A stretch of DNA of 64,000 nucleotides from an uncultured archaeon (GTDB lineage Archaea; Asgardarchaeota; Lokiarchaeia; Sigyniarchaeales; SOKP01): NCBI GenBank assembly GCA_964486045.1, contig CAZALK010000004.1:96001-160000 (forward strand), read 5' to 3'. The position numbers were made by a program, and so were the translations under genes. The notes beneath the pieces were generated by a model. It had not been told where the DNA came from and searched no databases. It saw only the letters and a list, made by a program, of their open reading frames with translations. Below, piece by piece: positions 3,779 to 23,515 of the stretch. Positions within the stretch are counted from its first letter, which is position 1; each line of letters opens with the position of its first letter.

Positions 3779-3883
3779 CTCTCTTAAATTTTTATTTTCT
3801 TCCTTAAGATTAAAGCTCTTTAAATTTTAGAAATCCTTTTATTCATTCTTTTTTTAGTAAATTATTATCTCACTGAGATATAA

Positions 3884-4094: not shown

Positions 4095-4237
4095 ATAAAG
4101 AATTTTCTGAGATCCAAGTAATAAACATTTATCAACTAAAATCATCTAATGAACTATAAATATAAATTTATGTAAGTTAATTTTAAAAAATTTGCTGATA
4201 TCTTTTTTAGAGTATGAAAAATTAGTTACTTATGTAA

Positions 4238-4750
4238 ATGATTGATTATGGTCATTTGTGCTTGTTAATTTTTGCTCAAGGCACGTGGAAAGAGAATTAT
4301 AAGCATAAATTGTTGGATCAAATTAAAAAGAATTTTCTTTCAAACGTGGAAATTGATGACATAGATCTTTGGAGTGAGATAAATAAGAGTTCTTTATTTG
4401 ATCCTAAAAATCCCGAAGCAAATGATAAACCTTGTGAACTATGTCATGTTCTTTATAAAATTTATGAGGGGAAAAAAGGGGGGAATGATGGATTAATCCT
4501 TTTTTCTCACAATATTATTAGTTGGAATGGTACAGGAAATTTACTGTCGTTTCTATTAGGTGAAAGAAATATAAAAAAGGTGTACTACTTAGAATTGGAT
4601 CAAGATTCTTATCTTATAAAAACTAAGGATAGAATTCCTGAGATAATCAATAATATTAAGGATATAAGGATCAATAGAACCGAGTTTTTTACTCTACTTG
4701 AAATGAAAGAATTAGAATTTAGCAAATTATATGAAATTGGTAAATTTTAG
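4238..4750 (+). CDS. Hypothetical protein
   Basis: 170-aa ATG ORF with normal composition; no family recognised. Confidence 0.65.
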   Translation: MIDYGHLCLLIFAQGTWKENYKHKLLDQIKKNFLSNVEIDDIDLWSEINKSSLFDPKNPEANDKPCELCHVLYKIYEGKKGGNDGLILFSHNIISWNGTGNLLSFLLGERNIKKVYYLELDQDSYLIKTKDRIPEIINNIKDIRINRTEFFTLLEMKELEFSKLYEIGKF

Positions 4751-4829
4751 GATTTAATCATCGATTAATTACGAACGATTTTAAATTTATAAAAGATAAA
4801 GCACATTATTCTTTTTGATCGGTTTAAAC

Positions 4830-5267
4830 TTAATTTGAACTTAGATAATTCTTACAGAATTCTTCTGATGTGCCAATTTTTATTAGGTTCTTTACTCGAT
4901 TAAATTTTCCATCATTAGAGATTAAGAATGACACTTTCTCACGTAAAGAAGCTGCGACAATAATACTATCAGGCAATCTAAGATTTGTTTCACTTCGAAT
5001 TTTTGCCGATTGATCAGCTAATCCCCTATCCAAATTAACGATTATGTAATTATCTTGTGAATATAATTTTGAAATATATTCATCTTTCTCTTTAGGTTTG
5101 TTTATATTATAGTAACCTACACATAGTTCTGCAATTGTAATGATCGAAACAACTCCTTTTAATTGTCCATCTTCAATCGCATCTAAAATCTTAGAAGAAT
5201 ATTCGAAAAATGGTTCTTCTTCTTCCTTAACATTTATAAAGATATTAGTATCAATTGTAATTTTCAT
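4830..5267 (-). CDS. vapC: VapC-type PIN-domain toxin
   Basis: IDTN..E..LRLPDSIIVA..LISND acidic PIN residues; probable ATG at 5267 overlaps the antitoxin stop (TAATG). Confidence 0.9.
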   Translation of the reverse strand: MKITIDTNIFINVKEEEEPFFEYSSKILDAIEDGQLKGVVSIITIAELCVGYYNINKPKEKDEYISKLYSQDNYIIVNLDRGLADQSAKIRSETNLRLPDSIIVAASLREKVSFLISNDGKFNRVKNLIKIGTSEEFCKNYLSSN

Positions 5268-5503
5268 TAATCCCATTCCTTTCTTAATTTCCTCTGAAAT
5301 TCAACACCTTTAACCCCCCAACGAGTATGGCTTTTTAATATCTCTACAAGCCTTCTCTTTTCGGGTTTCTTCAGAATTATCTCATTATCTTTCAAATAAA
5401 CAATAATTTTATCCCCTTTTAAAATGTTCAATCGTTCTCTAACTTCTTTGGGAATGGTTATTTGCCCTTTTTCACTTACAGTTATTTTAGCTACTATCTC
5501 CAT
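5267..5503 (-). CDS. vapB: AbrB/MazE/SpoVT-type antitoxin
   Basis: VSEKGQITIPKEVRERLNILKGD swapped-hairpin signature, directly upstream of the PIN gene. Confidence 0.9.
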   Translation of the reverse strand: MEIVAKITVSEKGQITIPKEVRERLNILKGDKIIVYLKDNEIILKKPEKRRLVEILKSHTRWGVKGVEFQRKLRKEWD

Positions 5504-5514
5504 TAATCATCATT

Positions 5515-5552
5515 TTTTACTTTCCTATTTATAAGTAAAACCTTTCTTACTT
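5515..5552. promoter_or_regulatory. Probable TA autoregulatory operator (overlapping inverted repeats)
   Basis: TTTTACTT-N10-AAGTAAAA (5515-5540) overlapping AAGTAA-N8-TTACTT (5533-5552), just upstream of the antitoxin ATG. Confidence 0.5.
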
Positions 5553-5829
5553 TTAAGTCTTACTATGAATGGAAATCTATTGAAAATTTTTGGTTTCATT
5601 ATTAGAAATATCTTTCTAGAACATGAATTATCATAAAATATTGCCGAAATAATTTATAAAAAGTATAATGTGAGAGTCCATATCGTTTAACAAAACCAAA
5701 TTTCACTTTGTTTCTAAAGATCAATTACTACAAAATAGTTAAAGAAATTCTTGAGATCCACGTAATAAACCTTTAAAAACTAAGACAATTTACATAATGA
5801 AATTAATAAAAAATTTGGAGGAATCAGAA

Positions 5830-6957
5830 ATGACACAAGTAGAAGTGAAAGAGAGTTATGAAAATATCCGTAAATTGCTAAGTTCTGGATACTCAAGACG
5901 ATTGCCAAAACATGAACTCACAGATAAATTAATACAAAATCTCTATCATGAAGAGGAGGTAGCAATAATTTCTTCTAGCTTCAAAGAAATTAAGGAATAT
6001 CTTACCGTTGACCAGATAAGCGAAAGATCTGGAGTAGAGGATAAGGAAAAATTAAAAAAAATGTTAGATCATATGGTCTATAAAGGTACTCTTATGAGGG
6101 GAAGAAATTCAACATATTATATGTTTTCATATTTACCGGGAATTTTTGAAGCATATTTTACTGCTGTAAGGGATACACCGGAGAGGTTGAAAGAAGCAGG
6201 GAAAGCACATAGAGGATTACGTAAAATTAGTTTCGGAACTGATGGAAGGTGGCCGGTCCCGTTACCGACTGACTTTAATAAGAAGAGTGCGTGGAGATAC
6301 GTTCCTACTATGGAACCTGTATTAAGATCAATAGAAATTAATGAAGAATTAGATGTAAAAAATGAAATATTACCATTTGAGGTTCTTGAGAAGCATCTAT
6401 CTGTTTATGAAGTCTTTTCAGAGACCCCTTGTAGTTGTAGAGAATCAGCAAAATTAGCAGATGAGAAATGTGAGAGAACTACTGAAAATTTTTGTATACA
6501 AGCAGGAGATTATGCTAAAGGTGCTATTAATAATGGAACAGGAAAAGCTTTAAGTTATGATGAGGCAATGAAACGTTTGAAAGAAGCAGAAAAGAATGGA
6601 TTAGTCCATTCTACTACAAATAAATTAGATCCTTCGATGTTTGTATGTAATTGTTGCCCATGTTGTTGTATGGCCTTAGCTCCAGTGATAAAAGGATATA
6701 AACTCGGTGCCGCAAAATCGAATTTTGATCCTGTAATTGATCATGATTTATGTGCTTTGTGCGACACGTGTGTAGATATTTGTCCAATGGAAATTATTGA
6801 GCATGTTGATGACTTTGATGGTGAAAAAATCATTTTCGGCCTTGATGGTTGTTTAGGATGCGGTTTATGTGCCGCAAATTGCCCTGAAGAAGCGATTTCT
6901 TTAGAAAAAGTTAGAAATGATATTCCGCGTCAATCAATGGGAAATTTATTCTCTTAA
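5830..6957 (+). CDS. 4Fe-4S dicluster protein with N-terminal HTH-like region and Cys-rich central domain
   Basis: CSC..C..C, CNCCPCCC and two CxxCxxCxxxCP motifs; GGAGG 8 nt before ATG 5830. Confidence 0.85.
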   Translation: MTQVEVKESYENIRKLLSSGYSRRLPKHELTDKLIQNLYHEEEVAIISSSFKEIKEYLTVDQISERSGVEDKEKLKKMLDHMVYKGTLMRGRNSTYYMFSYLPGIFEAYFTAVRDTPERLKEAGKAHRGLRKISFGTDGRWPVPLPTDFNKKSAWRYVPTMEPVLRSIEINEELDVKNEILPFEVLEKHLSVYEVFSETPCSCRESAKLADEKCERTTENFCIQAGDYAKGAINNGTGKALSYDEAMKRLKEAEKNGLVHSTTNKLDPSMFVCNCCPCCCMALAPVIKGYKLGAAKSNFDPVIDHDLCALCDTCVDICPMEIIEHVDDFDGEKIIFGLDGCLGCGLCAANCPEEAISLEKVRNDIPRQSMGNLFS

Positions 6958-7116
6958 ATATTACCACCTTTTTTAATTCCATTTAATCAACTTATTTTTG
7001 TTGTTTTTTCGTTAATTATCTATACGACAAAATTGATATTGAAAGTTTCAAATTTGAATATCAACTGGTCTGATTTGAAAGATTTAAATTGAATAGAACT
7101 TAAAATTTGATTCCTG

Positions 7117-8130
7117 CTAGTCCAAGAGTGAGTCGAGTGAAATGAATTTTTTGGCGAAATCCCGAAAAACAGCATTATCCGGAAACCATATTTTATTCTG
7201 GCGACCATATTGCCAAAGGATCATGCGATCCATCAGCATGTAAATACGGAAGCGCTCCTTATAGCCTGGACGTAACGGGCATCGCTCTCGGTAAGCTGTT
7301 ATGAAGGTTCGTGCTGCGTCTTGATTCGGAAAGGCCAGACTTGCAGTCATACGCGACAAATCTTGCTCTCCGTCTCCATAAGCACAGGTCATAAAGTCGA
7401 GGATCCCGCTAAGTTTCCAGCTATCCTTGGATCTCTCAACCAATAAGTTCCCCTCCTTATAGTCGTAGTGGACGAAGCAAGGTTGAAACGGGACTGAAAG
7501 CGCTTGCCGATTTTCCTTTATGACCTCGTTAATGAAATTGAGATCCCTGTCGTGAAGCGCATCTGGAACGTTCAGGGTCTTTGTTTGCCAGTCATTGAGC
7601 GATCGAATCACCCAATCACTGAACGAATCCTCCGCGCAAATCCCTCCTGAGGTGGGATCGTATTCTCCCGGTTCCAAAGCGGTCAAGCTATGCATTTCTG
7701 CTAAACCGTCACCCATCATCCTTGCAATCTCGACGTAATCTTCGGATCTGAGTTGATCTCGGAGATCAGAGGGAGGTATCCCTGGAAGACGCGGCATCAA
7801 AGCGTAGTTCCAGCCGAATAAATCCTCTGTTTCCTCGACAAGATAAGGCCAGGGTATCGGTGCTCTAGTGCTGCGATGAAGCTGTTCGAGGAAAAAGCGT
7901 TCTTTTGCGAACTGCCAAGGCCAATGGGGCGCGCCCCTTAGAACCCACTCACCGGACTTTGATGTCAGGAAGGCATTTTGACCGAAAAGACCGGCGGTTA
8001 TTGGCTGGACGTCTATAAGGTCGCCGAGATTATGCTTGTCCAACGCTGCTTGTAACTGATCTCGCGATAATTGCCCAAGTCGCTTAGAGAGCTTAAATTT
8101 GTCAGCCTGATCGTTATGCAATTTCTTCAT
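7117..8130 (-). CDS. Aminoglycoside/choline-kinase-like phosphotransferase (APH family), high GC
   Basis: HYDYKEGN (HxDxxxxN) and ILDF motifs; GAGGGGG SD before ATG 8130; sampled lines 47-50% GC. Confidence 0.85.
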   Translation of the reverse strand: MKKLHNDQADKFKLSKRLGQLSRDQLQAALDKHNLGDLIDVQPITAGLFGQNAFLTSKSGEWVLRGAPHWPWQFAKERFFLEQLHRSTRAPIPWPYLVEETEDLFGWNYALMPRLPGIPPSDLRDQLRSEDYVEIARMMGDGLAEMHSLTALEPGEYDPTSGGICAEDSFSDWVIRSLNDWQTKTLNVPDALHDRDLNFINEVIKENRQALSVPFQPCFVHYDYKEGNLLVERSKDSWKLSGILDFMTCAYGDGEQDLSRMTASLAFPNQDAARTFITAYRERCPLRPGYKERFRIYMLMDRMILWQYGRQNKIWFPDNAVFRDFAKKFISLDSLLD

Positions 8131-9406
8131 AAAAGCAATCCCCCTCTTCGAGATCCTTGTTAAAATCAATATGTCTTATTCCTGTAGGCATATATAATGA
8201 CACTATAACGACTAATCCCCCCATAGCACTTAGAAAGAATAATAATCTTATTCCTATAATTTCAGCTAAAAATCCAGTTAGTAATGCACCAATGGGAATC
8301 ATTAGCAGAGATAATGCACTTCCAATTGAAGTAGCTCTTCCCAATTTATCATGGGGTACATTTGTTTGTACAATTGTTTGAACCACAGTGCTATTAATTA
8401 TTTGAAAAAACCCCATCAAAAATTCACTTAAAAATATTATAATAATTGCTCTTGTAGGAGCAAAAGCTAACCACATGTACCCAATCATCACAAATACTAA
8501 TGAAGCGAATGAAGTGTAAATTTTATGATTCCAGTGTTTTTTAACGATAGTAAGTATGGCTCCACAAATAATACCTACTTGAAACCCCACGGAAAATAAT
8601 GCGTATTCTAGCTCGTTTCCTAAATGAATTACATTCACATAATAAGGAAATAATACATTTAAGGGTTGTATTATTAAGTTAAGAAGCATCCCCATCATAG
8701 TAAGAATAAGCACACCAGGAGTTATCCAGATTGTGCGAAGACCCTCCACAACTTCAGCTATAAAAAACTCACTTTTAGTTTTTTCTTCCTCACTCCTTAC
8801 TTTAGGGATTTTAATTACCAGTAATGGTCCTAAGGCAATAAAAAATGTTATGATATCTAACCATAGAGCTTGCTGTACAGCAACTGATAATGTGAGATTA
8901 ATTCTCAGAAAAACCAAAATGGTTCCTGCTAGAGCTGGACCTAAAAGTTGTACTGTACCAGTAGCAAAAAAATTAATTCCGTTTACTCTGCTTAATTTAT
9001 CTTTGGGAACCATTGTTGGGATAATCACAATTACAGTTGATTGATGAAAACCCTGAAAGACACTTCTAATTGTTATAAAGATCAAAAATATCCAATAATC
9101 AGTAAATCCAAAAGTCATAAATACCATAAGAATGAAAGTTGCAAACGCCTGCGATGAATCTACTACTAAAATCAGAATTTTTCTATTTAATCTATCAGCA
9201 AAAACGCCAGCTATTGGAGTGGCGATAATTAAGGGTACAATATAGCAAACTCGTGCCCATGCTAAGACAGCTGGACTCTGAGTTGTCTCCGTTAAATACC
9301 ATGTGACGAGAAAATAGACTGCAATAGAGCCCAAGAGGGAAAATACCTGTCCTCCCCAAAAAAATATATAATGTTGAAATGTGGTTTTCGTTGGCTTAGT
9401 TTCCAA
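8114..9406 (-). CDS. MFS efflux transporter (DHA3/MefA-like)
   Basis: FWGGQVFSLLGS, GVFADRLNRK (motif A), PKDKLSRVNG and DKLGR; about 12 TM segments. Confidence 0.9.
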   Translation of the reverse strand: METKPTKTTFQHYIFFWGGQVFSLLGSIAVYFLVTWYLTETTQSPAVLAWARVCYIVPLIIATPIAGVFADRLNRKILILVVDSSQAFATFILMVFMTFGFTDYWIFLIFITIRSVFQGFHQSTVIVIIPTMVPKDKLSRVNGINFFATGTVQLLGPALAGTILVFLRINLTLSVAVQQALWLDIITFFIALGPLLVIKIPKVRSEEEKTKSEFFIAEVVEGLRTIWITPGVLILTMMGMLLNLIIQPLNVLFPYYVNVIHLGNELEYALFSVGFQVGIICGAILTIVKKHWNHKIYTSFASLVFVMIGYMWLAFAPTRAIIIIFLSEFLMGFFQIINSTVVQTIVQTNVPHDKLGRATSIGSALSLLMIPIGALLTGFLAEIIGIRLLFFLSAMGGLVVIVSLYMPTGIRHIDFNKDLEEGDCFYEEIA

Positions 9407-9767: not shown

Positions 9768-10679
9768 ATGAGTAAAATCAAGTTTGGGGTAACGATAAAT
9801 GCTGCTCCGGATATGCTATACAGATCCGATTACGATTCAATTAGAAAAATAGCTATAGATTGTGAAAGATTGGGTTACGACTCTCTTTGGGCTATGGATC
9901 ACCTAATATGGGGAAATTTTAATGAGGGAAGCGTTTTCGAAGCTTGGACACTTCTTTCCGCCTTAGCAGTGGAAACTAAAAAAATCAAACTCGGACCTTT
10001 AGTAGCCTGCAATTCTTTTAGAAGTCCTTCACTGACCGCTAAAATAGCAGCTACAATAGATGTAATCTCAAAGGGAAGATTGATATTCGGCTATGGAGCC
10101 GGTTGGAAGGAACAAGAATATAGAGCTTATGGTTATCGATTCGAAGATCCAGTTACAAGAGTGAAACAAATGAGGGAAGGAATAACACTAATAAAGAAGC
10201 TCTGGACAGGAGAAACAACAAGCTTTCAAGGAGATTTCTATGAGGTAAATAATGCAATCTGCAAACCAAAACCCTTACAAAAACCTCATCCTCCAATCAT
10301 GATCGGTGGGGGGGGTGAAAAATATACACTAAAAGTCGCAGCTGAAATCGGGGATATCTGGGATCGATGGGGAGCTTCTATAGAAGAATATAAAAGAAAG
10401 GTGAGTATATTACATGAATACTGCGATAATCTCGGGAGAAAAATCGATGATCTAGAACTATCCTGGAGTGGTCCATTTCTAATCGGAAAAGATAAAATAC
10501 AATTAAACAAAAAAATTAGTCAGTATGGGAATGATAATGGCATTTCGTGTACGTATGACAAGTGTATAAAAATATTACAAGAGTTTATTGACCTGGGTTG
10601 TAAACAATTCATATTCGTCATAAGTGGTTTTAATGATGAAAAAGAGACCTTTATGGATGAGATAGGTTCCTCGTTTTAG
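9768..10679 (+). CDS. LLM-class (probably F420-dependent) oxidoreductase
   Basis: GYDSLWAMDH, EAWTLLSALA, GRLIFGYGAGW and PKPLQKPHPPIMIGGGGE motifs. Confidence 0.92.
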   Translation: MSKIKFGVTINAAPDMLYRSDYDSIRKIAIDCERLGYDSLWAMDHLIWGNFNEGSVFEAWTLLSALAVETKKIKLGPLVACNSFRSPSLTAKIAATIDVISKGRLIFGYGAGWKEQEYRAYGYRFEDPVTRVKQMREGITLIKKLWTGETTSFQGDFYEVNNAICKPKPLQKPHPPIMIGGGGEKYTLKVAAEIGDIWDRWGASIEEYKRKVSILHEYCDNLGRKIDDLELSWSGPFLIGKDKIQLNKKISQYGNDNGISCTYDKCIKILQEFIDLGCKQFIFVISGFNDEKETFMDEIGSSF

Positions 10680-11302: not shown

Positions 11303-11549
11303 CCATTACCTCTATTTATATTTTTTTTATAGTTTAATTAATCCTTATCCCAGAATCTATTTAACAATTTAGAATTGGGATTTTTTACTAAATTTTATAA
11401 TGATTCACTCAAAACTATCTACTTTTAAGATTACAATAAGTTATTTTTAAAAAAGATCCTAAGATTATAATCATAATATAGAAAAAATGTAAAAAATCCT
11501 AAATATTTTTAGCTAAAAATTCTAAAATCTTATAATTTAAGGTGATAAT

Positions 11550-12116
11550 TTGGTTAATCTTAACAAGCTTACTGTAAATTACCTTGAAAAATTAGGTAAG
11601 GAATTAAAAATTACTTTTAAAAGCTCTAGCAAAAAGTCTGATAAAATAAGAGCAATAAACAATGCAGGTATCCCCGATAATAAGCTAGAAGAATTATTTA
11701 ACAAATACTTTGCTCAATATCAAGCTTCAAAAGGAAAACCTACTATATTTAAGAAAAAACGAGTCAAACAATCGACTGTGTTAGAAACACGTATCAAATT
11801 ACTTGAGAAACAAGTTAAGTTTCTAATGTCTAAAATCGATAATATTGAAATCAATATAGCAAAAGAGCGAACTTCCAAAACATTAGGTGGGGGTTACAAC
11901 ATAAAGGAAGTTCAAAATATAATAAAGTCGAAAGTTTCACCCGGAGAATCGATAACTATAGATGAAGTTTTGAATCTAAGGAAACTTAAGAAATTTCCGA
12001 GAGATATAATAAAAAAAGGTATTATAGATTTAATAGATGATGAAATTTTCGATGTTTCAGAAGGACGATCGATTCAAAAAATACAAGGAAACATAGCACG
12101 ATTAATACGCAGGTAA
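11550..12116 (+). CDS. Hypothetical DNA-binding protein: HeH/Rho-N-like N-terminus, coiled coil, C-terminal wHTH-like domain
   Basis: LNKLTVNYLEKLGKELKI..S.KKSDKIRAI pattern; LETRIKLLEKQVKFL heptads; GGTGA SD before TTG start. Confidence 0.7.
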   Translation: MVNLNKLTVNYLEKLGKELKITFKSSSKKSDKIRAINNAGIPDNKLEELFNKYFAQYQASKGKPTIFKKKRVKQSTVLETRIKLLEKQVKFLMSKIDNIEINIAKERTSKTLGGGYNIKEVQNIIKSKVSPGESITIDEVLNLRKLKKFPRDIIKKGIIDLIDDEIFDVSEGRSIQKIQGNIARLIRR

Positions 12117-12143
12117 GAGAAAATTCTAAAAGGAGGCAACAAT

Positions 12144-14588
12144 TTGGTATATCAAAGAAGACTAACCTGGGTTTCAACAAGCGATTACGAAAGGTTATCC
12201 TCTATAATATTTGAGACGAAAATTAATCCATTTGGTATAGCAGCTTATAATCCTAATGAACCTGTAACAGATTTTGTAGGGAGAAGGGAGGAACTTTTAC
12301 AATTTAAAGAACAAATACAAATTGTAATTAATAATAAAATCAGTAGATCTGTGAAATTAAATGGACCTGCAGGTGTAGGAAAATCCACATTATTTAATTT
12401 TCTTAAGGAATCGATAGAAAAAGAGAGAATATCTATTAGATCAGATTCTGAGTATATTTTAAAAGATTGTGATGTGCTTTCTACGTTCTTTCAAATCCCT
12501 GATAAGATCTCTGATTTTTTAGACATTTGGAAACCATTACTAGAGGGTTTAAGGCCAGGATTTGAAAAAGAAATAGGTTATGATATAAGTTTACCAGAAT
12601 ACATCACTTTTCAAATTATCTATCGAATGTTTCTAAAAGATAGAGAAAAATTAGCTGAAATTATATGGAAAGATACAGAGCGCCCTCAGAGATTATACCA
12701 GGTAGAACTTAAAGATATTATAGATCCCTTGTTTTCTCAAGGAACTCCAGCAGTTCTAGCACTTCAAGAACATTATTCCTTGAAAAAAAGAGAGCTCCGA
12801 GATGTTTTTAAAGTAAGAATAAAAGGCAGGATTTACGAAATCAAACGAAGTGATAATAAAAATATTCTTAATCTTTTCAGAGTTATTGATGAAGATGACC
12901 CTGATGATTATTTGGAATTATTACTAGATGCTAATTCAGATTTATTTAAGACCAATGATGATCTGATTAATTATTTTAATGATTTAATGCGTTATTATGC
13001 CTGTAGCACAAAAAAACAACCAATTTTATTGATTGGAATTGATGAAGCTGTAAAGGCAGATCCACAAATTTTCAATCAATATTATCAAAATTTAGGAAAT
13101 TTGTTTGTTAAATTAAGAAATACATTAAATGATATTCTATTTGTTTTCATATCTACTACGGAGGATTGGGCAGAATTTGATAATATAATAAAGAAAAATA
13201 CTGATCTTCAGAGCCAATTAGGAGAATTTATGCATGAAATGCCCCTAACTCAATTGAGTGTAGATGAATTGGCTCAAGTTTTCAAAAACCGTATGAATAG
13301 GTTTTGGGAAAATTATCCTTCCCAACGTCCTCTTGAAGCGCCTTATTATCCTTTCTCTGAGAATTTATTTGAATATGTATATCGTTATAGATTGAGAGAT
13401 TTACGCGCTACGATACACTTTCTTAAAGATATGTGGATTAAGTTTAAATATTTAAGAAAAATTCCAAAATTTGAGACAATTTTCGAATCGTTGAGAGAAG
13501 TTCGGAAATTTGATGCAAGGGGGTTCAATCCTAATACGTTTAAAAGATTTGAGTGGAATATTATAAAAAATTCATTCAATGATCCTACAAGATTTAGAAG
13601 TAATTCTGCAAGATCTTCAGAAGTTGAAAAAGGGCTGGAATATGCTTGGAAGTGTCTCTTATATGAAAATCCACCAACAGTTACGAGAGTTGATAATAAT
13701 TGCACTATTATAACATCAAGTGGTAGTCGTAGACCTGATATTTATTTAGAAATTCTGGGTAATTTAGGGGCTGAATTTCGACGTAATATTGAATTTCAAG
13801 TAAAAGCTTACAATCAAGGAGGGACTGTTGCCTTGCACCATATTAAGTCTTCTCTCGAATTATTTACGGAACAATTTACAGATTTTATTTATTTTATAAT
13901 CACAGGGAAGGGATTAAAACCAGATGCAGAAGCAGCAATTAAAGGCTTAGAAATAACTTATACTAATCGAATACGACGTCCGATTTTAACTGAAGACCAA
14001 CGAAATCGTCTGTATTTATTAGCATTATATAAAGAAATTACAGGTAAAAATTTAGATGGAACCCTCCCAAAGGACTTTCAAATTGCTAAGGATCTTCTTT
14101 CATTTATTATTGGACAACCTATTGAAGATTTTTTGTCTGGGGTTAAAAGATTAGCTTATAGACAAACAATAACCGAAGTTGAGATTATATCCCCTCCGGT
14201 TGTTAAACCTTCCGAACCATCTCAAACTGAATTGCCATCTTTTGACGATGATTCAGAAATAATAGTACTCCCTGGAGAGCAATTCGGTACTCAAGTAAAA
14301 TGGTTAGACGATCATCCCAGTTTAAAACCTTATCGATTTGAAGCATCGGCACTTTGTGGTTACTTAAAAACTAGGGAAGAGGGTAGATACAAATTCAAAT
14401 TTACCATCCCTACAGTGGAAAAAAATGTTATTATGCCTAATGCCTCTCTAGGTAAACAGTTATTTAGAACACTAGTTAAAGTTTTGAAAGAAAAAGGATA
14501 TATTGTTCCAGAAAAATCATCATTTAAACTTACTCAGTTAGGAGAGCAACTTTATCAAACAATAAAAGCAGATAATTATTCTTGTTAA
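12144..14588 (+). CDS. AAA+/STAND-like P-loop ATPase fused to an Mrr-like PD-(D/E/Q)XK nuclease and a C-terminal wHTH
   Basis: NPF..FVGRxEEL, Walker A GPAGVGKS, Walker B ILLIGIDE and YYPF; RPDI...EFQVKAY..V...I...D...IITG.G...DA; C-terminal LKEKGYI...FKLTQLG; AGGAGG SD before TTG. Confidence 0.75.
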   Translation: MVYQRRLTWVSTSDYERLSSIIFETKINPFGIAAYNPNEPVTDFVGRREELLQFKEQIQIVINNKISRSVKLNGPAGVGKSTLFNFLKESIEKERISIRSDSEYILKDCDVLSTFFQIPDKISDFLDIWKPLLEGLRPGFEKEIGYDISLPEYITFQIIYRMFLKDREKLAEIIWKDTERPQRLYQVELKDIIDPLFSQGTPAVLALQEHYSLKKRELRDVFKVRIKGRIYEIKRSDNKNILNLFRVIDEDDPDDYLELLLDANSDLFKTNDDLINYFNDLMRYYACSTKKQPILLIGIDEAVKADPQIFNQYYQNLGNLFVKLRNTLNDILFVFISTTEDWAEFDNIIKKNTDLQSQLGEFMHEMPLTQLSVDELAQVFKNRMNRFWENYPSQRPLEAPYYPFSENLFEYVYRYRLRDLRATIHFLKDMWIKFKYLRKIPKFETIFESLREVRKFDARGFNPNTFKRFEWNIIKNSFNDPTRFRSNSARSSEVEKGLEYAWKCLLYENPPTVTRVDNNCTIITSSGSRRPDIYLEILGNLGAEFRRNIEFQVKAYNQGGTVALHHIKSSLELFTEQFTDFIYFIITGKGLKPDAEAAIKGLEITYTNRIRRPILTEDQRNRLYLLALYKEITGKNLDGTLPKDFQIAKDLLSFIIGQPIEDFLSGVKRLAYRQTITEVEIISPPVVKPSEPSQTELPSFDDDSEIIVLPGEQFGTQVKWLDDHPSLKPYRFEASALCGYLKTREEGRYKFKFTIPTVEKNVIMPNASLGKQLFRTLVKVLKEKGYIVPEKSSFKLTQLGEQLYQTIKADNYSC

Positions 14589-14612
14589 AGATTATGGCTT
14601 GCGTAAAATATT

Positions 14613-14756
14613 TTACTTTTTTCTTGATTTTCCTTGAGATTTAGGATTATTTTGGTTCATTTGATTTGATCTATTATCATTTGCTGCTTTAGAAGCCGGA
14701 TTATTTGGATTTTTTGAATTTGATCTATTATCGTTTGAACTTTTATTTTTACCCAT
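14613..14756 (-). CDS. Unannotated 47-aa Asn-rich microprotein with two NDNRSNxxNxNNP repeats
   Basis: Hand translation MGKNKSSNDNRSNSKNPNNPASKAANDNRSNQMNQNNPKSQGKSRKK*; GGTGA SD upstream of ATG. Confidence 0.75.
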   Translation of the reverse strand: MGKNKSSNDNRSNSKNPNNPASKAANDNRSNQMNQNNPKSQGKSRKK

Positions 14757-14887
14757 CAACTTCACCTTTATGTTTATTTAAAAATATGATTTGTGGTAAA
14801 TTAAAATTTACATTTCTGCTCAAATTTTATAAAGCAAATAAAGGAATATATATCTATAAAACCAAATCTAAACTTTTACTTATAGTC

Positions 14888-16660
14888 ATGGCAAATTTCC
14901 TAAGTACACCCCCTTTATCAGCTACTGACGGAGAACGAGCGTTTTATAATCGAATTAAGTATCTTTATCTTGGCGAAGATCACTTAATAGGATATTTTGA
15001 GCCGGATATTGGAGGGATTCATCCTGATTTTTTACTTCTTTCTCCCATTATCGGAATAATAATAGTAGAGATAAAGGATTATTCAGAGAAATATTTGAAA
15101 ACGATGGCTAAATCGGGAAAATGGGAGAGATTAAAAGATGATAATCTTATCTTTCTTGATAATCCATTTGATCAGATATATCAATACTGGCGAGTGATAA
15201 AAGACAGGATTGATTATTGTCATTTTCCAAAAAACATAGAAATCCCAATAATTCGATTAGTAGTTTTTAGCAAAATTCCTCATGATGGTCATATTGCTGA
15301 AGAAATTAGGAAAATTGTCCCTGCGAAAATCCATCTGTGTTTTAAGAACATGTTGAATAGAAATGAGAAATTTAAAGAATATTTTAATGATATTTTACCC
15401 TCAAATTTAGAGCTCCTTGCTGAATATTTTAATCTGCTTCGAGCAAATATTATCCCAACATGTAGATTACCCACACAAAAACAAACAGATCTGCTTGAAT
15501 ACTTTACACATGAGGAGAAGGTTAAATTACTCGATCAAGACCAAGAAAAATTTGCACGAGAATTAGGAGAGGGTCATCGACTAATCTTTGGCGTTGCCGG
15601 TAGTGGAAAAACAATCTTGTTACTTGCCAGAGCTAGAATCCTTGCTAAACGTCATCCAGATTGGAAGATTTTAATTCTATGTTACAACAAACTACTTAAA
15701 AAGCTACTTTTCAACTTATTAAATCCTCAAGATTATGAGGCGGATATCACAATTAGCACTTTTCATGGATGGGCCCGGAATTACATTTTAAACATTGAAA
15801 ACGAATTCTCTATGATATACAAAAAAGCTGAAGAAAAAGCAAAGAAAGAAGAAAAAATGTATGAATTTTTCCAAGATTTTGTACCAAATTTATTATCAAA
15901 GACGATTGAAGTATTAGGAGATACTAAGATTGAATATAACGCAATTTTAATAGACGAAGCTCAAGATTTTGATGAATCTTGGTTTTTACCTCTAATGCAA
16001 ACATTAAATCTTGAGACTAACTCATTATTAATTACATGTGATGGACTTCAGGGAATATATGCCAGAAAAAGGTTTTATTGGTCTGATGTAGGGATACAAG
16101 CAAGGGGAAGAGTTAAAAAATTTAGAAATTCATATCGAACACCACTTGAAATTGGATATTTGGCCCAAGAAACTTTACCTGAAAATCTTAAAGAATTAAT
16201 AGACAAATTTGATGAATTTCTTTCAACTGACAAGTTTCTGGGTGCCCATGGGACTGTGGAAATTGCCGTATCGGAAAATAGAGATGATGAATACAAGAAT
16301 ATTGTAAGTAAAATAGGTAGACTTCTTAAAAATCCTCAAGAAATATTAGTACTTTTTAAGTACAATATGGCGAAAATTGACTATGATCATTTATTTTGTA
16401 GATACCTCGAGGATTCTAAGATTGTGTGGAAAGACCTGCAAGACCATAATTATAATTCTCCCGGATTATTAATAGGGACTCTCCACGGAACTAAAGGTTT
16501 AGAATCTGATACCATTATAATTCCTGAAATTGACACATACAGATCTGATAAGGATCGTCAATTACTTTATGTAGGTATAACTCGTTCTCGGAAAAAAATA
16601 ATCTTAACTGCTAGCAAATCTACAGAATTGATAAAGTCTTTAGAACAATATCAAACCTAA
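14888..16660 (+). CDS. NERD nuclease domain + UvrD/Rep-like SF1 helicase
   Basis: PDFLLL..GIIIVEIKD (NERD); GVAGSGKT, ILIDEAQD, NSYRT, TLHGTKGLE and LLYVGITRS helicase motifs; real start probably ATG 14888. Confidence 0.88.
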   Translation: MANFLSTPPLSATDGERAFYNRIKYLYLGEDHLIGYFEPDIGGIHPDFLLLSPIIGIIIVEIKDYSEKYLKTMAKSGKWERLKDDNLIFLDNPFDQIYQYWRVIKDRIDYCHFPKNIEIPIIRLVVFSKIPHDGHIAEEIRKIVPAKIHLCFKNMLNRNEKFKEYFNDILPSNLELLAEYFNLLRANIIPTCRLPTQKQTDLLEYFTHEEKVKLLDQDQEKFARELGEGHRLIFGVAGSGKTILLLARARILAKRHPDWKILILCYNKLLKKLLFNLLNPQDYEADITISTFHGWARNYILNIENEFSMIYKKAEEKAKKEEKMYEFFQDFVPNLLSKTIEVLGDTKIEYNAILIDEAQDFDESWFLPLMQTLNLETNSLLITCDGLQGIYARKRFYWSDVGIQARGRVKKFRNSYRTPLEIGYLAQETLPENLKELIDKFDEFLSTDKFLGAHGTVEIAVSENRDDEYKNIVSKIGRLLKNPQEILVLFKYNMAKIDYDHLFCRYLEDSKIVWKDLQDHNYNSPGLLIGTLHGTKGLESDTIIIPEIDTYRSDKDRQLLYVGITRSRKKIILTASKSTELIKSLEQYQT

Positions 16661-16947
16661 GAACAGATTTGACATATAGGGCAAAGATGGGTTCCAACAA
16701 TGATGAATCGATCAGTTGGGATAAAGAGGTTTGACCCTAATAATCTTTTAACTAAACCTTTATTTTCAGAATAATCCTTCAAAATGAATTCATTTGGAGC
16801 AAGTTCTACGGAATCATGCTTAATAGAAAGTTCGGCTATCGGTTCACCATTAATATCAAGAACATATACTGCAAGTTGACCGTTTAAATATTGTTTTAAA
16901 TGCAGTTTTCTATCAATACTTATTTGAGTAGTTATCATTTCTTTCAT
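16657..16947 (-). CDS. Small hypothetical protein, DUF4313-like
   Basis: YxNGxLAV..D..GEP.A.LS....L..NEF..KDYSEN.G pattern, recalled for DUF4313. Confidence 0.55.
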   Translation of the reverse strand: MKEMITTQISIDRKLHLKQYLNGQLAVYVLDINGEPIAELSIKHDSVELAPNEFILKDYSENKGLVKRLLGSNLFIPTDRFIIVGTHLCPICQICS

Positions 16948-17124
16948 GTTTTATGACATTGTCATTATTTATAAAGAAAAAAAGGGTATTCAAATAATGA
17001 TTTTTAAACTCTCTAAATATTAGACGTTTTAACTAAATTGATTCTAATCTCTGAATAGAAGATATATATAGTTAAACCATCAGTATTTACATTAGATATA
17101 AATATATAATATAGATTGATAACT

Positions 17125-17571
17125 ATGAGCAAAAACCAAATCAAAAGAAACAAAACTCTTAAGATCTATACTGATGGAGCAGCACGAGGAAATCCCGGAC
17201 CGGCAGCTTACTCATTTATATTCGTTTGTAATGGGGAAATAATACAAAAAGGATTTGGATTCATCGGAACAGCCACAAACAACACAGCAGAATACCAAGC
17301 AATTATAAAAGCGTTAAAAGCAGCTGAAAAGTTTCATGGCAGCAATCTCCAAGTTTATTCTGACAGCAAACTAGCTGTTCAACAGATTAATAAAAAGTGG
17401 AAAATCAATTATCCACATCTGGTGAAAATGTGTAGTGAAGTTCATAAATTAAGTGAGAGATATAAAAAAGTTGAGTTCTTTCATGTAAGTCGTAATAATC
17501 CCTTTATTAAAAAATGCGATGAACTATGTAATTCTCAATTGGATAAGCAGAGGTTTTCAAATCAACAATAA
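17125..17571 (+). CDS. rnhA: Ribonuclease HI (archaeal/Gram-positive type)
   Basis: IYTDGAARGNPGPA, TNNTAEY, VYSDSKL and HVSRxxxxIxxCDEL motifs. Confidence 0.92.
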   Translation: MSKNQIKRNKTLKIYTDGAARGNPGPAAYSFIFVCNGEIIQKGFGFIGTATNNTAEYQAIIKALKAAEKFHGSNLQVYSDSKLAVQQINKKWKINYPHLVKMCSEVHKLSERYKKVEFFHVSRNNPFIKKCDELCNSQLDKQRFSNQQ

Positions 17572-18723: not shown

Positions 18724-19548
18724 TCATGCTGCAAAAAAGTCTTCTGGAAATAATGTCACAGGTCTCCATTCCAAAATATCTAACATTAGACTAGGTTTGA
18801 TGCTGTTTATCTTAAGAGGACGACCATTCTGAGTTGATATCACGAAAGGCCCAATAGCATTATTTTCAAAGTTGCTTTGGTAATTTTGCAAGTAGTGAAA
18901 GATTCCTTGAGCATTTATTGTTGATTTTATTGATTGATTATGATACAAAACACCAATTTGGGCTCTCGTTTCTCCAACACTGCAATTTTTCTCTTTAAAA
19001 TCAAGATTAACTTTAATTAATTTTCGTAATCTGCTTTCCTTGATAAGTAGTTTAGCACAGTATGGACAATTATTTTCTTTTAAATCATCTTTTTGAATTT
19101 TCCAACGGAAACCATAGCGTAATAACATAATATCGCATTCCTTACAAGCGAATATCTTCTTTCTAGTTCGGGAAATAGTGGGTTTTGCTCCTGGTCTATC
19201 AAGAATAACTTTTAAATAGTAGTGAATATCCGTCCCTTTTTTGTACTTGGCAATCTCTTCTAGCATTAGTATCCCAACCTCAGAGAACCTTTTTAATTTA
19301 TTGGTTTGTATTATATTCATTAAATCAATTAACCCAATCTCATTTAGTTTAAATTCTCTTCCTAACTTCTTTCCCTCCGAATCATTTACAGATACATAAT
19401 AATCTGCTGAATAATCACCATCATAATATTTGGTCTTGTAATCATTTATTGTTAAATAACAATTTGAAATTTGATCACCAACCTTTACCTTTAAACTATT
19501 TTTCAAATAGCTCTCTATTGGTGTAGCATCATCATTTTTAATTACCAT
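18724..19548 (-). CDS. Hypothetical Zn-ribbon protein ending in EWRPVTLFPEDFFAA
   Basis: CKEC...CPYC ribbon; C-terminal motif shared with the 26325-26816 product. Confidence 0.75.
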   Translation of the reverse strand: MVIKNDDATPIESYLKNSLKVKVGDQISNCYLTINDYKTKYYDGDYSADYYVSVNDSEGKKLGREFKLNEIGLIDLMNIIQTNKLKRFSEVGILMLEEIAKYKKGTDIHYYLKVILDRPGAKPTISRTRKKIFACKECDIMLLRYGFRWKIQKDDLKENNCPYCAKLLIKESRLRKLIKVNLDFKEKNCSVGETRAQIGVLYHNQSIKSTINAQGIFHYLQNYQSNFENNAIGPFVISTQNGRPLKINSIKPSLMLDILEWRPVTLFPEDFFAA

Positions 19549-19599
19549 TATATTTCATTTTTTCAATTTTTTATTTTTTAACAAAAAATCACTGAAAAT

Positions 19600-21012
19600 T
19601 CATTTCATAAGCTTAGCAATTAGCTCTGGAAGATTTTTTGGGGTACAAGCGAGAACATCTATACCCATTTGTTTCATTTCCCTTGCATAGCGACGATCAT
19701 ACATTGGCTGGCTATTATAACCGAGAGCCGCAATTCCTAAAATCTTTGTCTGACCTTCTAATACATGTTTTAATGCCTTGGTTAGATTATCATAACCTCC
19801 TCCTTCATAAAAATCGCTAATAATAACCATTATTGCTTTCTTAGGGTTTTTAATTAAAGATTGACCATATCGTACTGCTCTTGTAATATCAGTTCCACCT
19901 CCTAATTGAACAGACATTAACACATCAACGGGATCATCGATTTTACTTGAGAGATCAACAACTTGGGTGTCAAATATTAGGAGATTAGTATGAACAGATG
20001 GTAAAGTAGCAAAAATTGAAGCCATTACTATTGAATAGATAACTGAATCAGTCATAGATCCGCTCTCATCTATCATAACTACTATCTGCCAAGGTTTTTT
20101 CCTTCTTTCAGCGCTAAAAAAACGCGGTTCTGCCATTATTAATTTTTTTAAATTAGGATTATAGTGTTTCAGATTTCTCCGGATACTTTGTTTCCAGTCA
20201 ATATTTCTAAACACTTTAATAGGAGTATGTTTATCTCTTTTAATTGCTCCTACGATATGTCGTTCTACTTCTTGTTTAAATTTATTTTTTAAAGCATTTA
20301 CTACTTTTTTCACAATTTTTCGTGCAATATTTTTAACATTCTCTGGAAGCATGTGTTTCATACTGATAATAACTTTTACCATCTCAAGACTCGGTTCCAC
20401 CTTATCGAATAACTCCGGATTTTTAATGATATCTTTTAAATCAGATCGTTCCACAAAATCTTTTTCAAGTACTTCTTTAGTTTGTTTTGGAAAGAATTTT
20501 TTGACATTTTCTATCCATTTTGGGATTGAAAGTCTGCTTCCCTCTAAACCAGCACTTCTTTTTTGATTAGGAGGATGGTAAACGAAATTTAGCGTATTAT
20601 CGATTTTAGTTAAAGTACTCGCTTGTGGTGTATGTGGAGTTTGTTGACTATTTCTTTGAGAATCTGTTTTAGATTCAGATTCTTCTCTTCCTCCTCCTGG
20701 CTTTTTTTTTTGACCTGATTTGGCTTGACTAGAACCAATTTTACCCGATCTGCCTCCAGGTCGAGATTTTGCTTGTCTTTTATGAGCATTGTTTTTCTTC
20801 ACTCCCTTTCCAGGTTTAGATTGTCCTGCCTTTGAAATATTTTGGTTAGCTTGAGTATTCAGATTATTTTGACCAGCCATCCCCGGATTAGGAGAACTAA
20901 AATTTATGCCCTGCTCTTCAGATTTTTTACCTAAAATTAATCTCCATCTATTTAAAGCTGACCTTTTCTCTTCAGAGAGATTTTTTGCATCAAATATTTG
21001 ATCTGACGTCAA
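19600..21012 (-). CDS. VWA (CoxE-like) protein, YehP-like
   Basis: RWRLILG N-terminal motif, MIDAS DESGSM, QLGGGTDI and ISDFYEGG; TTG start at 21012 after GAGGT. Confidence 0.9.
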   Translation of the reverse strand: MTSDQIFDAKNLSEEKRSALNRWRLILGKKSEEQGINFSSPNPGMAGQNNLNTQANQNISKAGQSKPGKGVKKNNAHKRQAKSRPGGRSGKIGSSQAKSGQKKKPGGGREESESKTDSQRNSQQTPHTPQASTLTKIDNTLNFVYHPPNQKRSAGLEGSRLSIPKWIENVKKFFPKQTKEVLEKDFVERSDLKDIIKNPELFDKVEPSLEMVKVIISMKHMLPENVKNIARKIVKKVVNALKNKFKQEVERHIVGAIKRDKHTPIKVFRNIDWKQSIRRNLKHYNPNLKKLIMAEPRFFSAERRKKPWQIVVMIDESGSMTDSVIYSIVMASIFATLPSVHTNLLIFDTQVVDLSSKIDDPVDVLMSVQLGGGTDITRAVRYGQSLIKNPKKAIMVIISDFYEGGGYDNLTKALKHVLEGQTKILGIAALGYNSQPMYDRRYAREMKQMGIDVLACTPKNLPELIAKLMK

Positions 21013-21013
21013 T

Positions 21014-23491
21014 TTATACCTCACCAAACCAAGTTTCAAAAACATCCCTTACCTTTTTATCAATAGATTTAAAGAATATTAGGATTTCGTCATCTACATC
21101 ATCAAAAACTTCATTAATTTTGGATTCCTTTAAGCCATAATGCTCTGCGAGTTTTTCTATGAATATTTCATATTCCCTTTGTTGGAGTTCTGAAAAGGCT
21201 TTTCTTAAAGCAGGTACAATTGCAGTAAAGATATCCCACTCAAGATTTTCAACTACTTCTGCGAAGAGTTCAATTATTTCCTTATTAAATAAAATTTTAG
21301 CTTGACATACATAAATAATTCCCCGAATCAAATCTCCCACTTTTACTTGGATTGATTGAACACTATTCACATCATCAAGAACATTTCGTTTTATTTCATT
21401 AATGCTAAGTTTATTCATAAGATAAAGTATGCCTAAATTACCGCCTTTTATAAACTCATTTCGAGTGGAATCTATGCATGTTTTGATACTTTCTGTAAAA
21501 ACATATAGATCAAGGTCAAGTTCTGTTATTGAGTTAAAAGAATCCGCTAATTTCTTTATTGTTACAATGTATTTTTCCGCATCTTGCTGTGGTGGATTAG
21601 CAAAATTCGGAATAGCATAACAACACGTATAATAACAACGATTGATTAATTTGGTTATGAGTTCTATGATTTCTTTTCTCGCATCCATCATTAAAAGATA
21701 TTGATGGATCATAATCAAATTAAAAAATCCACCAGAAAGGCTTAAAAGTTGGTTATCTACACTTATAGAATTGTCACATTCGGTATATAGTTTTTCAAAC
21801 TGATCTGAAAACCCCATTAATAAACTTTGGAATAGTAGATTAGTTACTTTATTAAAATTTTTAATACTTTTTTTAGTCTCCTCAATTAGCATACTATTAC
21901 TTGCTTCTTCCACTGAAGCGCCAAAAGCGCTAAGTTCAACGAGTTTTGTATCAATTCTTGGAGTCCAATGTAATGCCCAGACTTCTGTAAATACTCCTGT
22001 TATCCCTTGCAAAACATCTGGACCAGAAACCCGCGCCAAATAATCTATTCCTAAAAATTTTATTCTCCAAAACAGTTGTGATGTTTCTATATCTTTTTCT
22101 TCGCGTAAACTCAAATGTATTTCTTGTGACCTTTCTTCAAGATCAATTCCACGCGATTCTAATTGAAGATAAAAATCCTCTTGGAGTGGTAATCTTCCTA
22201 TTTTTTTAGTTACTTTTCCTACCTTATATCCAATTGTTTTACTATATATATAATCTTCTAAATACTTTCCATCTATTTTTGGATTCCCTTTTATGAGTGA
22301 CATATAAATTGCATCAACAATATCTTTTAATCCTGGTTCTGAACGTCGTCTCAACATCGCGAGCATTTTTGCCCCATTATATGCATTTATAGAATCAGAA
22401 ATAGAAATAAGGTGGCCTCCTTGACGAGCACTTCTAAAAATGTCTGTAATAATCTCTAATGCAGTAGCTTCATAAGTTTTATGAACTTTGGAATTGAATT
22501 TTTCCCAAATATTATTATAAAATTGGGGTGCTTGGTTTCCAGAAAGATAACCTGACTTTTGGCTAATTCTGAAATAAGAGAATGGAATTAATGAATTAGT
22601 CATACCCTTAACAGGAAATGTGTAATTTTTCGCTGAAGTATCTGGAAGTGCGATTGAATGGATACCTCCAGTTATCACCAACACATCTCTTCTTTTAACT
22701 TTGTATTTATTTATATATTTTTCAATCTGATATTTCATGTAGGCTTCTCTCGCGAGTGTACCATCTATTTTGAGTAAGCTTTTGTCTAGTGTTTGACGTA
22801 TGCACGAGCAAAATAATAAGATACTTTCTCTTAACTGATTAATATTAGAATGAGGGGCATTAATTTCAAATAGAGTTTCCCATGTTTCATTAAAACTGTC
22901 AAATTCAAATACTTGTGCAAATTTTTGATAAAATTTGCTAATTGTATATACCATTTCTTTTTGAACAATAAAGGAATTTAAATCTTTTTTTTCATGAATT
23001 TCAGAAAAAAACGATAGTAATCCTGTCATAGGTAAATCAATAAAATGTGTTGGTATTTTCTTTTTTACACATTCAGTTAATGCAACCATTTCGGGGGAGT
23101 AAGAAACAAACGGATATAAAACTTCAAAACGAGCAGGTAGAGAAACATCTGGACTAAGAATTCCATTTAGACTAAATTTATTGTTAATATCTGAAAACAT
23201 CGAAAGGATGGCAATAGGCGGAATTGTATCTTTAGCAACCATAAATTGTATTAGTTTATCTGCAACCGTTGGACCTTCTATTAACACCAATTTAGGTTTA
23301 TGAACTTCTATCCATTTTTTTACTAGAAAACTAGAACCTGGTGAATGATGGCGAATTGGCAGATATTTAATTTCAGCTTTTTTTACTTTTTGAACCTGAT
23401 CGTCAATTAAATCAGTGTCTAATTGGAGTAAGTCTCCAATTTCATATAAAATGTTCTTTAAATTTGTTGCATTTAAGGTATTATTGCTCAT
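21014..23491 (-). CDS. DUF5682 / YehM-like protein
   Basis: PIRHHSPG, LVLIEGP, YSPE, AREAYM, VITGGIH and SGYxSG motifs. Confidence 0.85.
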   Translation of the reverse strand: MSNNTLNATNLKNILYEIGDLLQLDTDLIDDQVQKVKKAEIKYLPIRHHSPGSSFLVKKWIEVHKPKLVLIEGPTVADKLIQFMVAKDTIPPIAILSMFSDINNKFSLNGILSPDVSLPARFEVLYPFVSYSPEMVALTECVKKKIPTHFIDLPMTGLLSFFSEIHEKKDLNSFIVQKEMVYTISKFYQKFAQVFEFDSFNETWETLFEINAPHSNINQLRESILLFCSCIRQTLDKSLLKIDGTLAREAYMKYQIEKYINKYKVKRRDVLVITGGIHSIALPDTSAKNYTFPVKGMTNSLIPFSYFRISQKSGYLSGNQAPQFYNNIWEKFNSKVHKTYEATALEIITDIFRSARQGGHLISISDSINAYNGAKMLAMLRRRSEPGLKDIVDAIYMSLIKGNPKIDGKYLEDYIYSKTIGYKVGKVTKKIGRLPLQEDFYLQLESRGIDLEERSQEIHLSLREEKDIETSQLFWRIKFLGIDYLARVSGPDVLQGITGVFTEVWALHWTPRIDTKLVELSAFGASVEEASNSMLIEETKKSIKNFNKVTNLLFQSLLMGFSDQFEKLYTECDNSISVDNQLLSLSGGFFNLIMIHQYLLMMDARKEIIELITKLINRCYYTCCYAIPNFANPPQQDAEKYIVTIKKLADSFNSITELDLDLYVFTESIKTCIDSTRNEFIKGGNLGILYLMNKLSINEIKRNVLDDVNSVQSIQVKVGDLIRGIIYVCQAKILFNKEIIELFAEVVENLEWDIFTAIVPALRKAFSELQQREYEIFIEKLAEHYGLKESKINEVFDDVDDEILIFFKSIDKKVRDVFETWFGEV

Positions 23492-23515
23492 CTTATCGAA
23501 ATTGTCTGTATAATA

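Follow-up and report, generated by a model that had tools for sequence, protein, structure and literature searches.

The locus and its two genes

A pair of adjacent genes was analyzed in a 64,000-nucleotide (nt) stretch of DNA (hereafter, the window) from an uncultured Sigyniarchaeales archaeon (SOKP01; assembly GCA_964486045.1, contig CAZALK010000004.1, positions 96,001–160,000), in which an earlier reading of the sequence (the original prediction) had placed a candidate two-gene defence system. Coordinates are window positions unless a locus of a relative in another genome, designated by an L-number, is named. The pair comprises an open reading frame (ORF) at 11550–12116 on the + strand, which encodes a small partner protein of 188 amino acids (aa), and a co-oriented ORF at 12144–14588 on the + strand, which encodes a large protein of 814 aa and is single-copy in its genome; the intergenic gap is 27 nt. 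Both genes start with TTG, and reading of the sequence located a Shine-Dalgarno motif ahead of each (AAGGTGA for the small gene and AGGAGG for the large gene). Because the homologues begin at the same residues, both starts can be taken as right, and the originally described arrangement of two co-oriented TTG genes with strong Shine-Dalgarno motifs was confirmed. An AT-rich intergenic stretch 5' of the pair (11303–11549, +) is the presumed promoter region, and an oligo-T tract (14611–14626, +), which is terminator-like for an archaeon, lies 3' of the stop codon of the large gene. This tract, together with the AT-rich leader that the next gene has of its own, suggests that the pair is a separate transcription unit. 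A stretch of about 6 kb to each side of the pair contained no methyltransferase gene, as the original prediction had also noted for the adjacent genes.

The large protein joins an AAA+ ATPase, a restriction-fold nuclease and a winged helix

Sequence profiles gave limited information on the large protein. Pfam matches were sub-threshold (AAA_16 at aa 44–102 and HTH_45 at aa 760–808), the NCBIfam Orc1/Cdc6 model (TIGR02928) matched weakly and at aa 42–123 only (25.6 bits versus a cut-off of 181.3), and the family profile retrieved only P-loop noise (E 0.1) from the PDB sequences. A full-length model was obtained with AlphaFold2 from 35 orthologues (predicted local distance difference test score [pLDDT] 87.7). 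In this model, aa 20–459 (12201–13520, +) adopt an AAA+ fold with an alpha-beta-alpha base and a helical lid, for which fold matches were obtained at Z 10–13. The best matches in the VIA structure search were Cdc6/Orc proteins, with Z values of 13.2–12.2 (Cdc6 7jgr_G, 13.2; Orc1/Cdc6 2qby_B, 12.4), followed by TnsC (7rzy, 12.1), MuB (8xvb, 11.6) and BrxC (9zdx, 11.4), and STAND ATPases trailed at Z ~10. Walker A (GPAGVGKST, aa 74–82), Walker B (LLIGIDE, aa 294–301), the sensor-1 residues S337/T338, and R325, R383 and R421 are invariant across the 35 orthologues, 11 of which also match ATPase_2 (PF01637) weakly. As to the insert of about 220 aa originally placed between Walker A and Walker B, the spacing of K80 and D300 is indeed 220 aa, but the insert itself, as judged from the secondary structure of the model, is a mostly helical segment of about 170 aa (aa ~118–290; 12495–13013, +). 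Its mean pairwise identity of 44% indicates that it is not hypervariable.

When the full 814-aa model was used for fold searches, AAA+ matches filled the lists and nothing was learned about the nuclease, so that residues 465–680 were refolded alone from a 59-sequence alignment, resulting in a domain model with a pLDDT of 96.2 and a predicted template modelling score of 0.92. The domain model has the PD-(D/E)xK core fold (alpha-beta-beta-beta-alpha-beta) at aa 487–612 (13602–13979, +), with E495 in the first helix, D532 at a strand start and E550-x-Q552-x-K554 in the next strand, and the core is followed by a modelled helical bundle (aa 613–680; 13980–14183, +). The top Foldseek matches were AF1548 (1y88, 7.8e-5), MspJI (4f0q, 1.1e-4) and AspBHI, and then FokI, EndoMS/NucS, Bax1 and Cap4. 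The VIA search gave VC1899 (1xmx; Z 8.6, root-mean-square deviation [rmsd] 3.5, 128 aligned), AF1548 (1y88; Z 8.2, rmsd 4.0, 118 aligned), LlaBIII (Z 7.5), Can2, McrC (Z 6.9, rmsd 3.7, 133 aligned) and NucS. Hjc was also among the fold matches, and restriction-fold nucleases accounted for nearly every match listed in both searches. A survey of PD-(D/E)xK nucleases gives 1y88 as the structure for the Mrr_cat family (PMC3424549). Residues E495, P531, D532, E550, Q552 and K554 are invariant in the 35 orthologues, and E495, P531, D532, K554 and D580 are retained in at least 90% of the 59 orthologues and paralogues. The large protein contains the stretch RRPD...EFQVK...FIITGKG, and Mrr_cat_2 matched weakly in 11 of the 35 members (best E 0.0076); the window protein itself had no Pfam match to Mrr_cat or Mrr_cat_2 at E ≤ 1, and the gathering threshold was not reached. 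Thus, with respect to the Mrr-like nuclease originally predicted, the modelled domain confirms a restriction-endonuclease fold for aa 480–630, with Mrr/MspJI-type enzymes on top and the predicted active site invariant, but it does not confirm membership of the Pfam Mrr family. A TnsA-like reading of the nuclease was also considered and rejected, TnsA being absent from the 50 best matches listed in either search.

The nuclease region is connected by a disordered Pro/Glu/Thr-rich tether (about aa 681–716; 14184–14291, +), with a pLDDT below 50 (aa 685–716), a length that varies among orthologues and an identity of 15%, to a C-terminal winged helix-turn-helix (aa 717–814; 14292–14588, +), which was recognized in the model and by matches to HTH_45 (8.9e-5) and the Sso10a family (2.8e-4). 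HTH_45 was found in 32 of the 35 members. The low-complexity linker and terminal winged helix of the original prediction were therefore borne out, as was its statement that no repeat sensor is present, none being found by Pfam or in the model. Taken together, the large protein joins an intact AAA+ ATPase of the Orc1/Cdc6–TnsC–MuB–BrxC type, an intact Mrr/MspJI-type nuclease and a tethered winged helix.

The winged helix was also observed as a stand-alone protein. In L045 (4212–6828), the gene is split within the tether into ORFs of 747 aa and 134 aa, and in Harpocratesius (L031, 3269–3547; genome G213), a separate 121-aa frame that is 43–46% identical to aa 714–812 lies about 6 kb from the pair. 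The global search further retrieved many proteins of 100–150 aa that align to the terminal winged helix only.

The small partner combines a probable DNA-binding head with a zipper-like coiled coil

The partner (11550–12116, +) consists, according to its alignment and to weak profile and language-model leads, of a SAP/HeH-like head, a Lys-rich linker, a coiled coil and a C-terminal globular domain of about 70 aa. The head has SAP/HeH spacing, and Pfam SAP was matched by 1 of 20 orthologues (E 1e-5), with which the others align column for column; the window's own partner had no Pfam match. In two other partner orthologues, the head is replaced by a C2H2-like zinc finger. The Lys-rich stretch is followed by a heptad coiled coil (aa ~75–105) with a weak likeness to the GCN4/CREB zippers (E 0.002–0.03), and the partner is probably dimeric. 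For the conserved C-terminal domain, a language-model search returned weak winged-helix leads only (scores <0.9), and a winged helix at this position is thus putative. Therefore, of the order HeH, coiled coil and winged helix originally proposed for the partner, the zipper-like coiled coil stood, the HeH head is clear from sequence in one orthologue only, and the winged helix is a weak lead. A probable DNA-binding head, either SAP/HeH-like or a zinc finger, joined to a zipper-like coiled coil is the architecture of the small protein, and the exchange of a SAP head for a zinc finger fits a role in recognition or regulation. Homology of the partner to a part of the large protein was also considered and was ruled out by hhalign (probability 0.1%).

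The pair is tightly linked, confined to Asgard archaea and patchily distributed

A partner homologue was found directly upstream of the large gene and on the same strand in all 12 orthologue loci with upstream DNA, the window counted, so that the linkage assumed in the original prediction holds in other genomes. The linked loci span other families, one record labelled Heimdallarchaeota and the cultured Promethearchaeum syntrophicum MK-D1, whose orthologue pair is 33% identical. Distant paralogues of about 720–920 aa show 20–30% identity in the ATPase and nuclease regions, and in 10 of their 12 assessable loci a co-oriented gene for a protein of 130–212 aa lies immediately upstream. These small proteins have the same layout as the partner, with a coiled coil between a variable head and a C-terminal domain, and hhalign gave a weak link to the partner family (probability 65%, E 6e-5). 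Because the paralogues carry a similarly built upstream small gene of their own, the two-gene layout is a trait of a wider superfamily. In its anatomy, the pair counts two or three DNA-binding modules, and the small gene is an obligatory companion of the large one.

A profile search of 1.84 billion cluster representatives retrieved 119 proteins at E ≤ 1e-3, including 51 at E ≤ 1e-30, and the named members were all from Asgard archaea (Promethearchaeota, Lokiarchaeota, Heimdallarchaeota, Hodarchaeales/Hodarchaeota, Helarchaeota or Harpocratesius). The partner had 56 relatives in the protein collection, and the few with a source name were likewise all labelled Asgard. No relative of the large protein was found on IMG/VR viral contigs. 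The distribution across Asgard genomes was patchy: full-length orthologues were present in 9 of 301 genomes of the phylum, and any match at E ≤ 1e-10 was present in 22 of the 301 genomes and in 10 of 90 high-quality genomes. Among the sampled genomes of the window's genus, only one besides this genome had an orthologue. Identity of the large protein to this congeneric orthologue is 57%, but it reaches 82% with a protein from another genus, a pattern that suggests either transfer or allelic lineages of long standing. The pair also appears to sit in a variable region, because gene order in the nearest relatives (G302 and G312) breaks right beside a luciferase-like gene (9768–10679), and few genomes of the genus have the downstream MoxR-type operon (18724–26816), whose 481-aa gene was present in 2 of 26 sampled genomes.

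Comparison with known systems

Neither protein of the pair matched any family in PADLOC-DB 2.0.0 at E ≤ 1, and no described system matching the pair was found in PADLOC 2.0, Pfam, NCBIfam, the PDB sequence search or literature searches, which agrees with the original view that the system is undescribed. The closest likeness of the nuclease is to type IV restriction enzymes of the Mrr, MspJI and AspBHI kind, which have the same fold and the same D...(E)xQxK pattern and also lack a cognate methyltransferase. In these enzymes, however, a winged-helix or SRA-like reader is placed N-terminal to the nuclease and there is no ATPase, whereas the nuclease of the pair lies behind an AAA+ motor. In its logic, the pair would resemble McrBC, in which AAA+ subunits assemble on DNA in a nucleotide-driven manner and so license a nuclease of the restriction fold, again without a methyltransferase. 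McrBC differs in consisting of two separate polypeptides (the GTPase McrB and the nuclease McrC) with no counterpart of the small partner, and the AAA+ module of the large protein is closest to Orc/Cdc6, TnsC and MuB rather than McrB. No McrBC model in Pfam or PADLOC matched either protein at E ≤ 1, and the only link to McrBC in the modelled structure is the generic similarity of the nuclease fold to McrC.

Orc1/Cdc6, TnsC/TniB, MuB and BrxC, the best structural matches of the motor (Z 11–13), include proteins that also have winged helices (Orc1/Cdc6 and BrxC), but none of them carries a nuclease, and the large protein differs further in its insert between Walker A and Walker B. It does not belong to Orc1/Cdc6 itself, as the TIGR02928 score lies far below the cut-off and the nuclease and tether intervene between the lid and the winged helix. 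Likewise, the similarity to the AAA+ module of BrxC (rmsd 4.8, 276 aligned) is tied with that of many other AAA+ proteins, no PglZ or PglX of the bacteriophage exclusion (BREX) system was encoded among the neighbours scanned (5.8–18.7 kb of the window), and no transposase gene was found beside the pair among these neighbours.

Avs4 also combines a nucleoside triphosphatase (NTPase) and an Mrr-type nuclease in one antiviral protein, and the nuclease domains of Avs3 and Avs4 were matched by the nuclease fold at Z 6.2 and 4.9, respectively. The order in Avs4 is nuclease, STAND NTPase and tetratricopeptide repeat (TPR) sensor, whereas in the large protein the nuclease follows the ATPase and a dedicated small partner is added. 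Neither a repeat domain (Pfam and model) nor a PADLOC match to Avs was found, and the ATPase scored higher against Orc/Cdc6-type AAA+ proteins (Z 13) than against STAND ATPases. The reversed order relative to Avs4 in the original prediction is therefore correct but not unprecedented, since AAA+ ATPases that end in a DUF234 PD-(D/E)xK domain have already been described, and the archaeal ATPase_2 (PF01637)–DUF234 (PF03008) proteins of about 470 aa have the same order as the large protein (PMC3424549). Descent as a divergent branch of the latter was considered and rejected: hhalign against eight Asgard DUF234 proteins aligned 39 columns around the P-loop only, and no DUF234 match was found in the large protein, the 35 members or the whole genome.

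Proposed function and alternative explanations

On these grounds, we infer that the pair is an Asgard-restricted, horizontally mobile two-gene module that most likely defends against viruses or other invading DNA, with a probability of about 55%, that is, an NTPase–nuclease conflict system confined to Asgard archaea and distinct from those described. Orc1/Cdc6, TnsC, MuB and BrxC act as ATP-dependent assemblies on DNA. By analogy with these structural relatives, the ATPase may assemble on DNA in an ATP-dependent manner, and this assembly would license cutting by the nuclease. The partner could either bring the enzyme to its target DNA or restrain the enzyme and repress the operon until infection. 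Because no methyltransferase is present and the nuclease most resembles modification-dependent enzymes, self and non-self would probably be discriminated in the manner of type IV systems, through modified or otherwise unusual invader DNA, or by way of abortive infection. An ATP-licensed, McrBC-like restriction is thus the mechanism that we favour, considering also that the relatives of the motor assemble on DNA.

The neighbourhoods of the orthologues are in line with this proposal. A NERD and UvrD-type superfamily 1 helicase with a 96-aa companion accompanies the pair in the window, L037 and L038, with a SIR2-TPR gene also present in L038. McrC, NurA/HerA and DruA genes were found in L041, a type III-D CRISPR-Cas effector operon in L034, PRTase-CE genes in L046 and L047 (MK-D1), a Cas4-like nuclease gene also in L046, a PLD-like nuclease gene in L040, and a Tn7-like TnsA-integrase/TniB/TniQ set in L042. 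The distribution, which is patchy, and these defence-island neighbourhoods favour defence over chromosome maintenance, the two having been left side by side in the original prediction. The fold of the nuclease region, the relation to known systems and the linkage of the genes were the points on which that prediction was open to refutation; all three were examined and none refuted it, and its interpretation is supported.

Several observations weigh against defence. The link to defence genes is guilt by association, applies to about 8 of the 12 neighbourhoods, and is qualitative and without a statistical baseline; L039, L043 and L045 have no obvious defence genes. The mean pairwise identity of 40–58% across the domains of the large protein reveals no hypervariable sensor domain, which disfavours a classic sensor–effector design. 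Moreover, archaeal ATPase-nucleases can be housekeeping proteins, by the precedent of Cran1, an archaeal OLD-family protein that reportedly acts in cell-cycle progression rather than defence (PMC12796447). A function of the pair in housekeeping DNA transactions, such as repair, processing of recombination intermediates or chromosome maintenance, comparable with NucS/EndoMS or Cran1, would accord with this precedent, with the even conservation of the domains, with the combination of an Orc-like ATPase and winged helices, and with the presence of NucS/EndoMS, Bax1 and Hjc among the fold matches of the nuclease. Nevertheless, such a function is very unlikely, given that the pair was not found in the majority of the complete genomes from its own genus and family, lacks synteny in the nearest relatives, and is surrounded by defence genes and not by operons for replication or repair.

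A role in the service of a mobile element also has to be weighed, be it in replication initiation or maintenance, in a toxin–antitoxin-like addiction with the partner as the repressor or antitoxin, or in transposon target selection or immunity. The top matches of the AAA+ fold to Orc1/Cdc6 initiators and to the transposition regulators TnsC and MuB, the patchy distribution with its signs of transfer, and the Tn7-like set that one orthologue (L042) abuts are all compatible with it. In the usual layout of Tn7, the cargo does not lie on the tnsA-proximal side, and it is on this side, outside the usual cargo position, that the L042 pair is situated. As the genes flanking the pair in the window and in 10 other loci include no integrase, transposase or capsid gene, no relative was found on the IMG/VR viral contigs, and the 50 best nuclease matches listed do not include TnsA, we regard a mobile-element role as unlikely. 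The pair could also be the core of a larger machine of three or four genes that includes the helicase and the 96-aa companion, in which the helicase would unwind or translocate along DNA and the ATPase-nuclease would cut it. That both genes adjoin the pair in three different gene orders suggests that their adjacency was kept through rearrangement, but they are absent from the other nine orthologue loci, and the oligo-T tract and a separate AT-rich region lie between the pair and the helicase. Furthermore, identity between the window and L038 is 78% for the helicase and only 55% for the large protein, so that their histories differ, and the NERD and UvrD combination is already a stand-alone PADLOC candidate. 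The helicase is therefore better described as a recurrent, optional neighbour (3 of 12 orthologue loci), always accompanied by the 96-aa gene, and a joint machine is quite improbable.

To our knowledge, Asgard immunity is poorly charted beyond CRISPR, restriction-modification, viperins and argonautes. If the proposed role in defence is true, the pair would add a lineage-specific system consisting of an Orc/Cdc6-like motor, an Mrr-type nuclease and a small adaptor on which SAP and zinc-finger heads can be exchanged, and the enzyme could be of interest as an ATP-gated nuclease. Of all known prokaryotes, Asgard archaea are the most closely related to eukaryotes. It is conceivable, though doubtful enough that we would give it only a small chance, that the superfamily was born in Asgard archaea when a replication-initiator-like AAA+ loader became a restriction machine that is gated by ATP and guided by interchangeable DNA readers of a eukaryotic style (a bZIP-like zipper bearing either a SAP or a C2H2-like zinc-finger head). 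In that case, the superfamily would constitute an immune system of a new class, comprising several paralogous clades that each keep an adaptor of their own, and it may have harboured at an early stage DNA-binding modules that are more familiar from chromatin and repair proteins of eukaryotes. The idea of defence is testable in principle, because MK-D1 has an orthologue pair and a Lokiarchaeum virus has reportedly been cultivated (bioRxiv 10.64898/2026.02.13.705702).

Neighbouring genes and further observations

The helicase gene of the window (14870–16660, +; PADLOC candidate C3a187, 3e-69) is convergent with the 96-aa gene (16657–16947, −), which has no Pfam match, and the two overlap by 4 nt. 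They form a conserved unit (window 14705–16947; L037 7181–9258; L038 7199–9276), in which the helicase is 69–78% and the 96-aa protein 61–66% identical across the three genomes. The homologues of the helicase align only from codon 56 of the ORF at 14705–16660, and the first ~55–61 codons of this ORF are probably untranslated.

Upstream of the pair in the window, genes for Hsp90, Fe-S, phosphotransferase and major facilitator superfamily proteins occupy 1547–9406. They are absent from that position in G302 and G312, in which the orthologue of the first window gene (138–1427) directly adjoins the luciferase-like gene. In the downstream MoxR-type operon, a 15-aa C-terminal tail (EWRPV...PEDF) is carried by the products of the first and last genes; the possibility that the pair shares it was rejected, as neither protein of the pair has it.

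The Tn7-like set of L042 (3956–8814), on a contig of a Promethearchaeum sp. metagenome-assembled genome (JAUWOE010000066.1), places such a set in an Asgard archaeon. Its products are an 850-aa fusion of a TnsA-like endonuclease with an rve integrase, a TniB of 314 aa and a TniQ of 452 aa. The set is oriented divergently to the partner gene and begins about 490 nt from it. The large PRTase-CE proteins (Pfam PF24390) near the pair are encoded at 13083–15299 in L047 (MK-D1, NZ_CP042905.2) and at 1573–4452 in L046, and leucine-rich-repeat proteins also flank the MK-D1 pair. A protein built of repeated topoisomerase-type C4 zinc ribbons recurs near the pair in four related genomes (L037 6000–7049, L038 6409–7092, L039 618–1295 and L040 130–843), and its homologue in the window (30328–30993) lies 16 kb away. 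An RNase H gene was also observed near the pair both in the window (17116–17571) and in L039 (1336–1773), the locus from the second genome of this genus in which an orthologue was found. The two RNase H proteins are 65% identical, and their genes lie on opposite sides of the pair and in opposite orientation.

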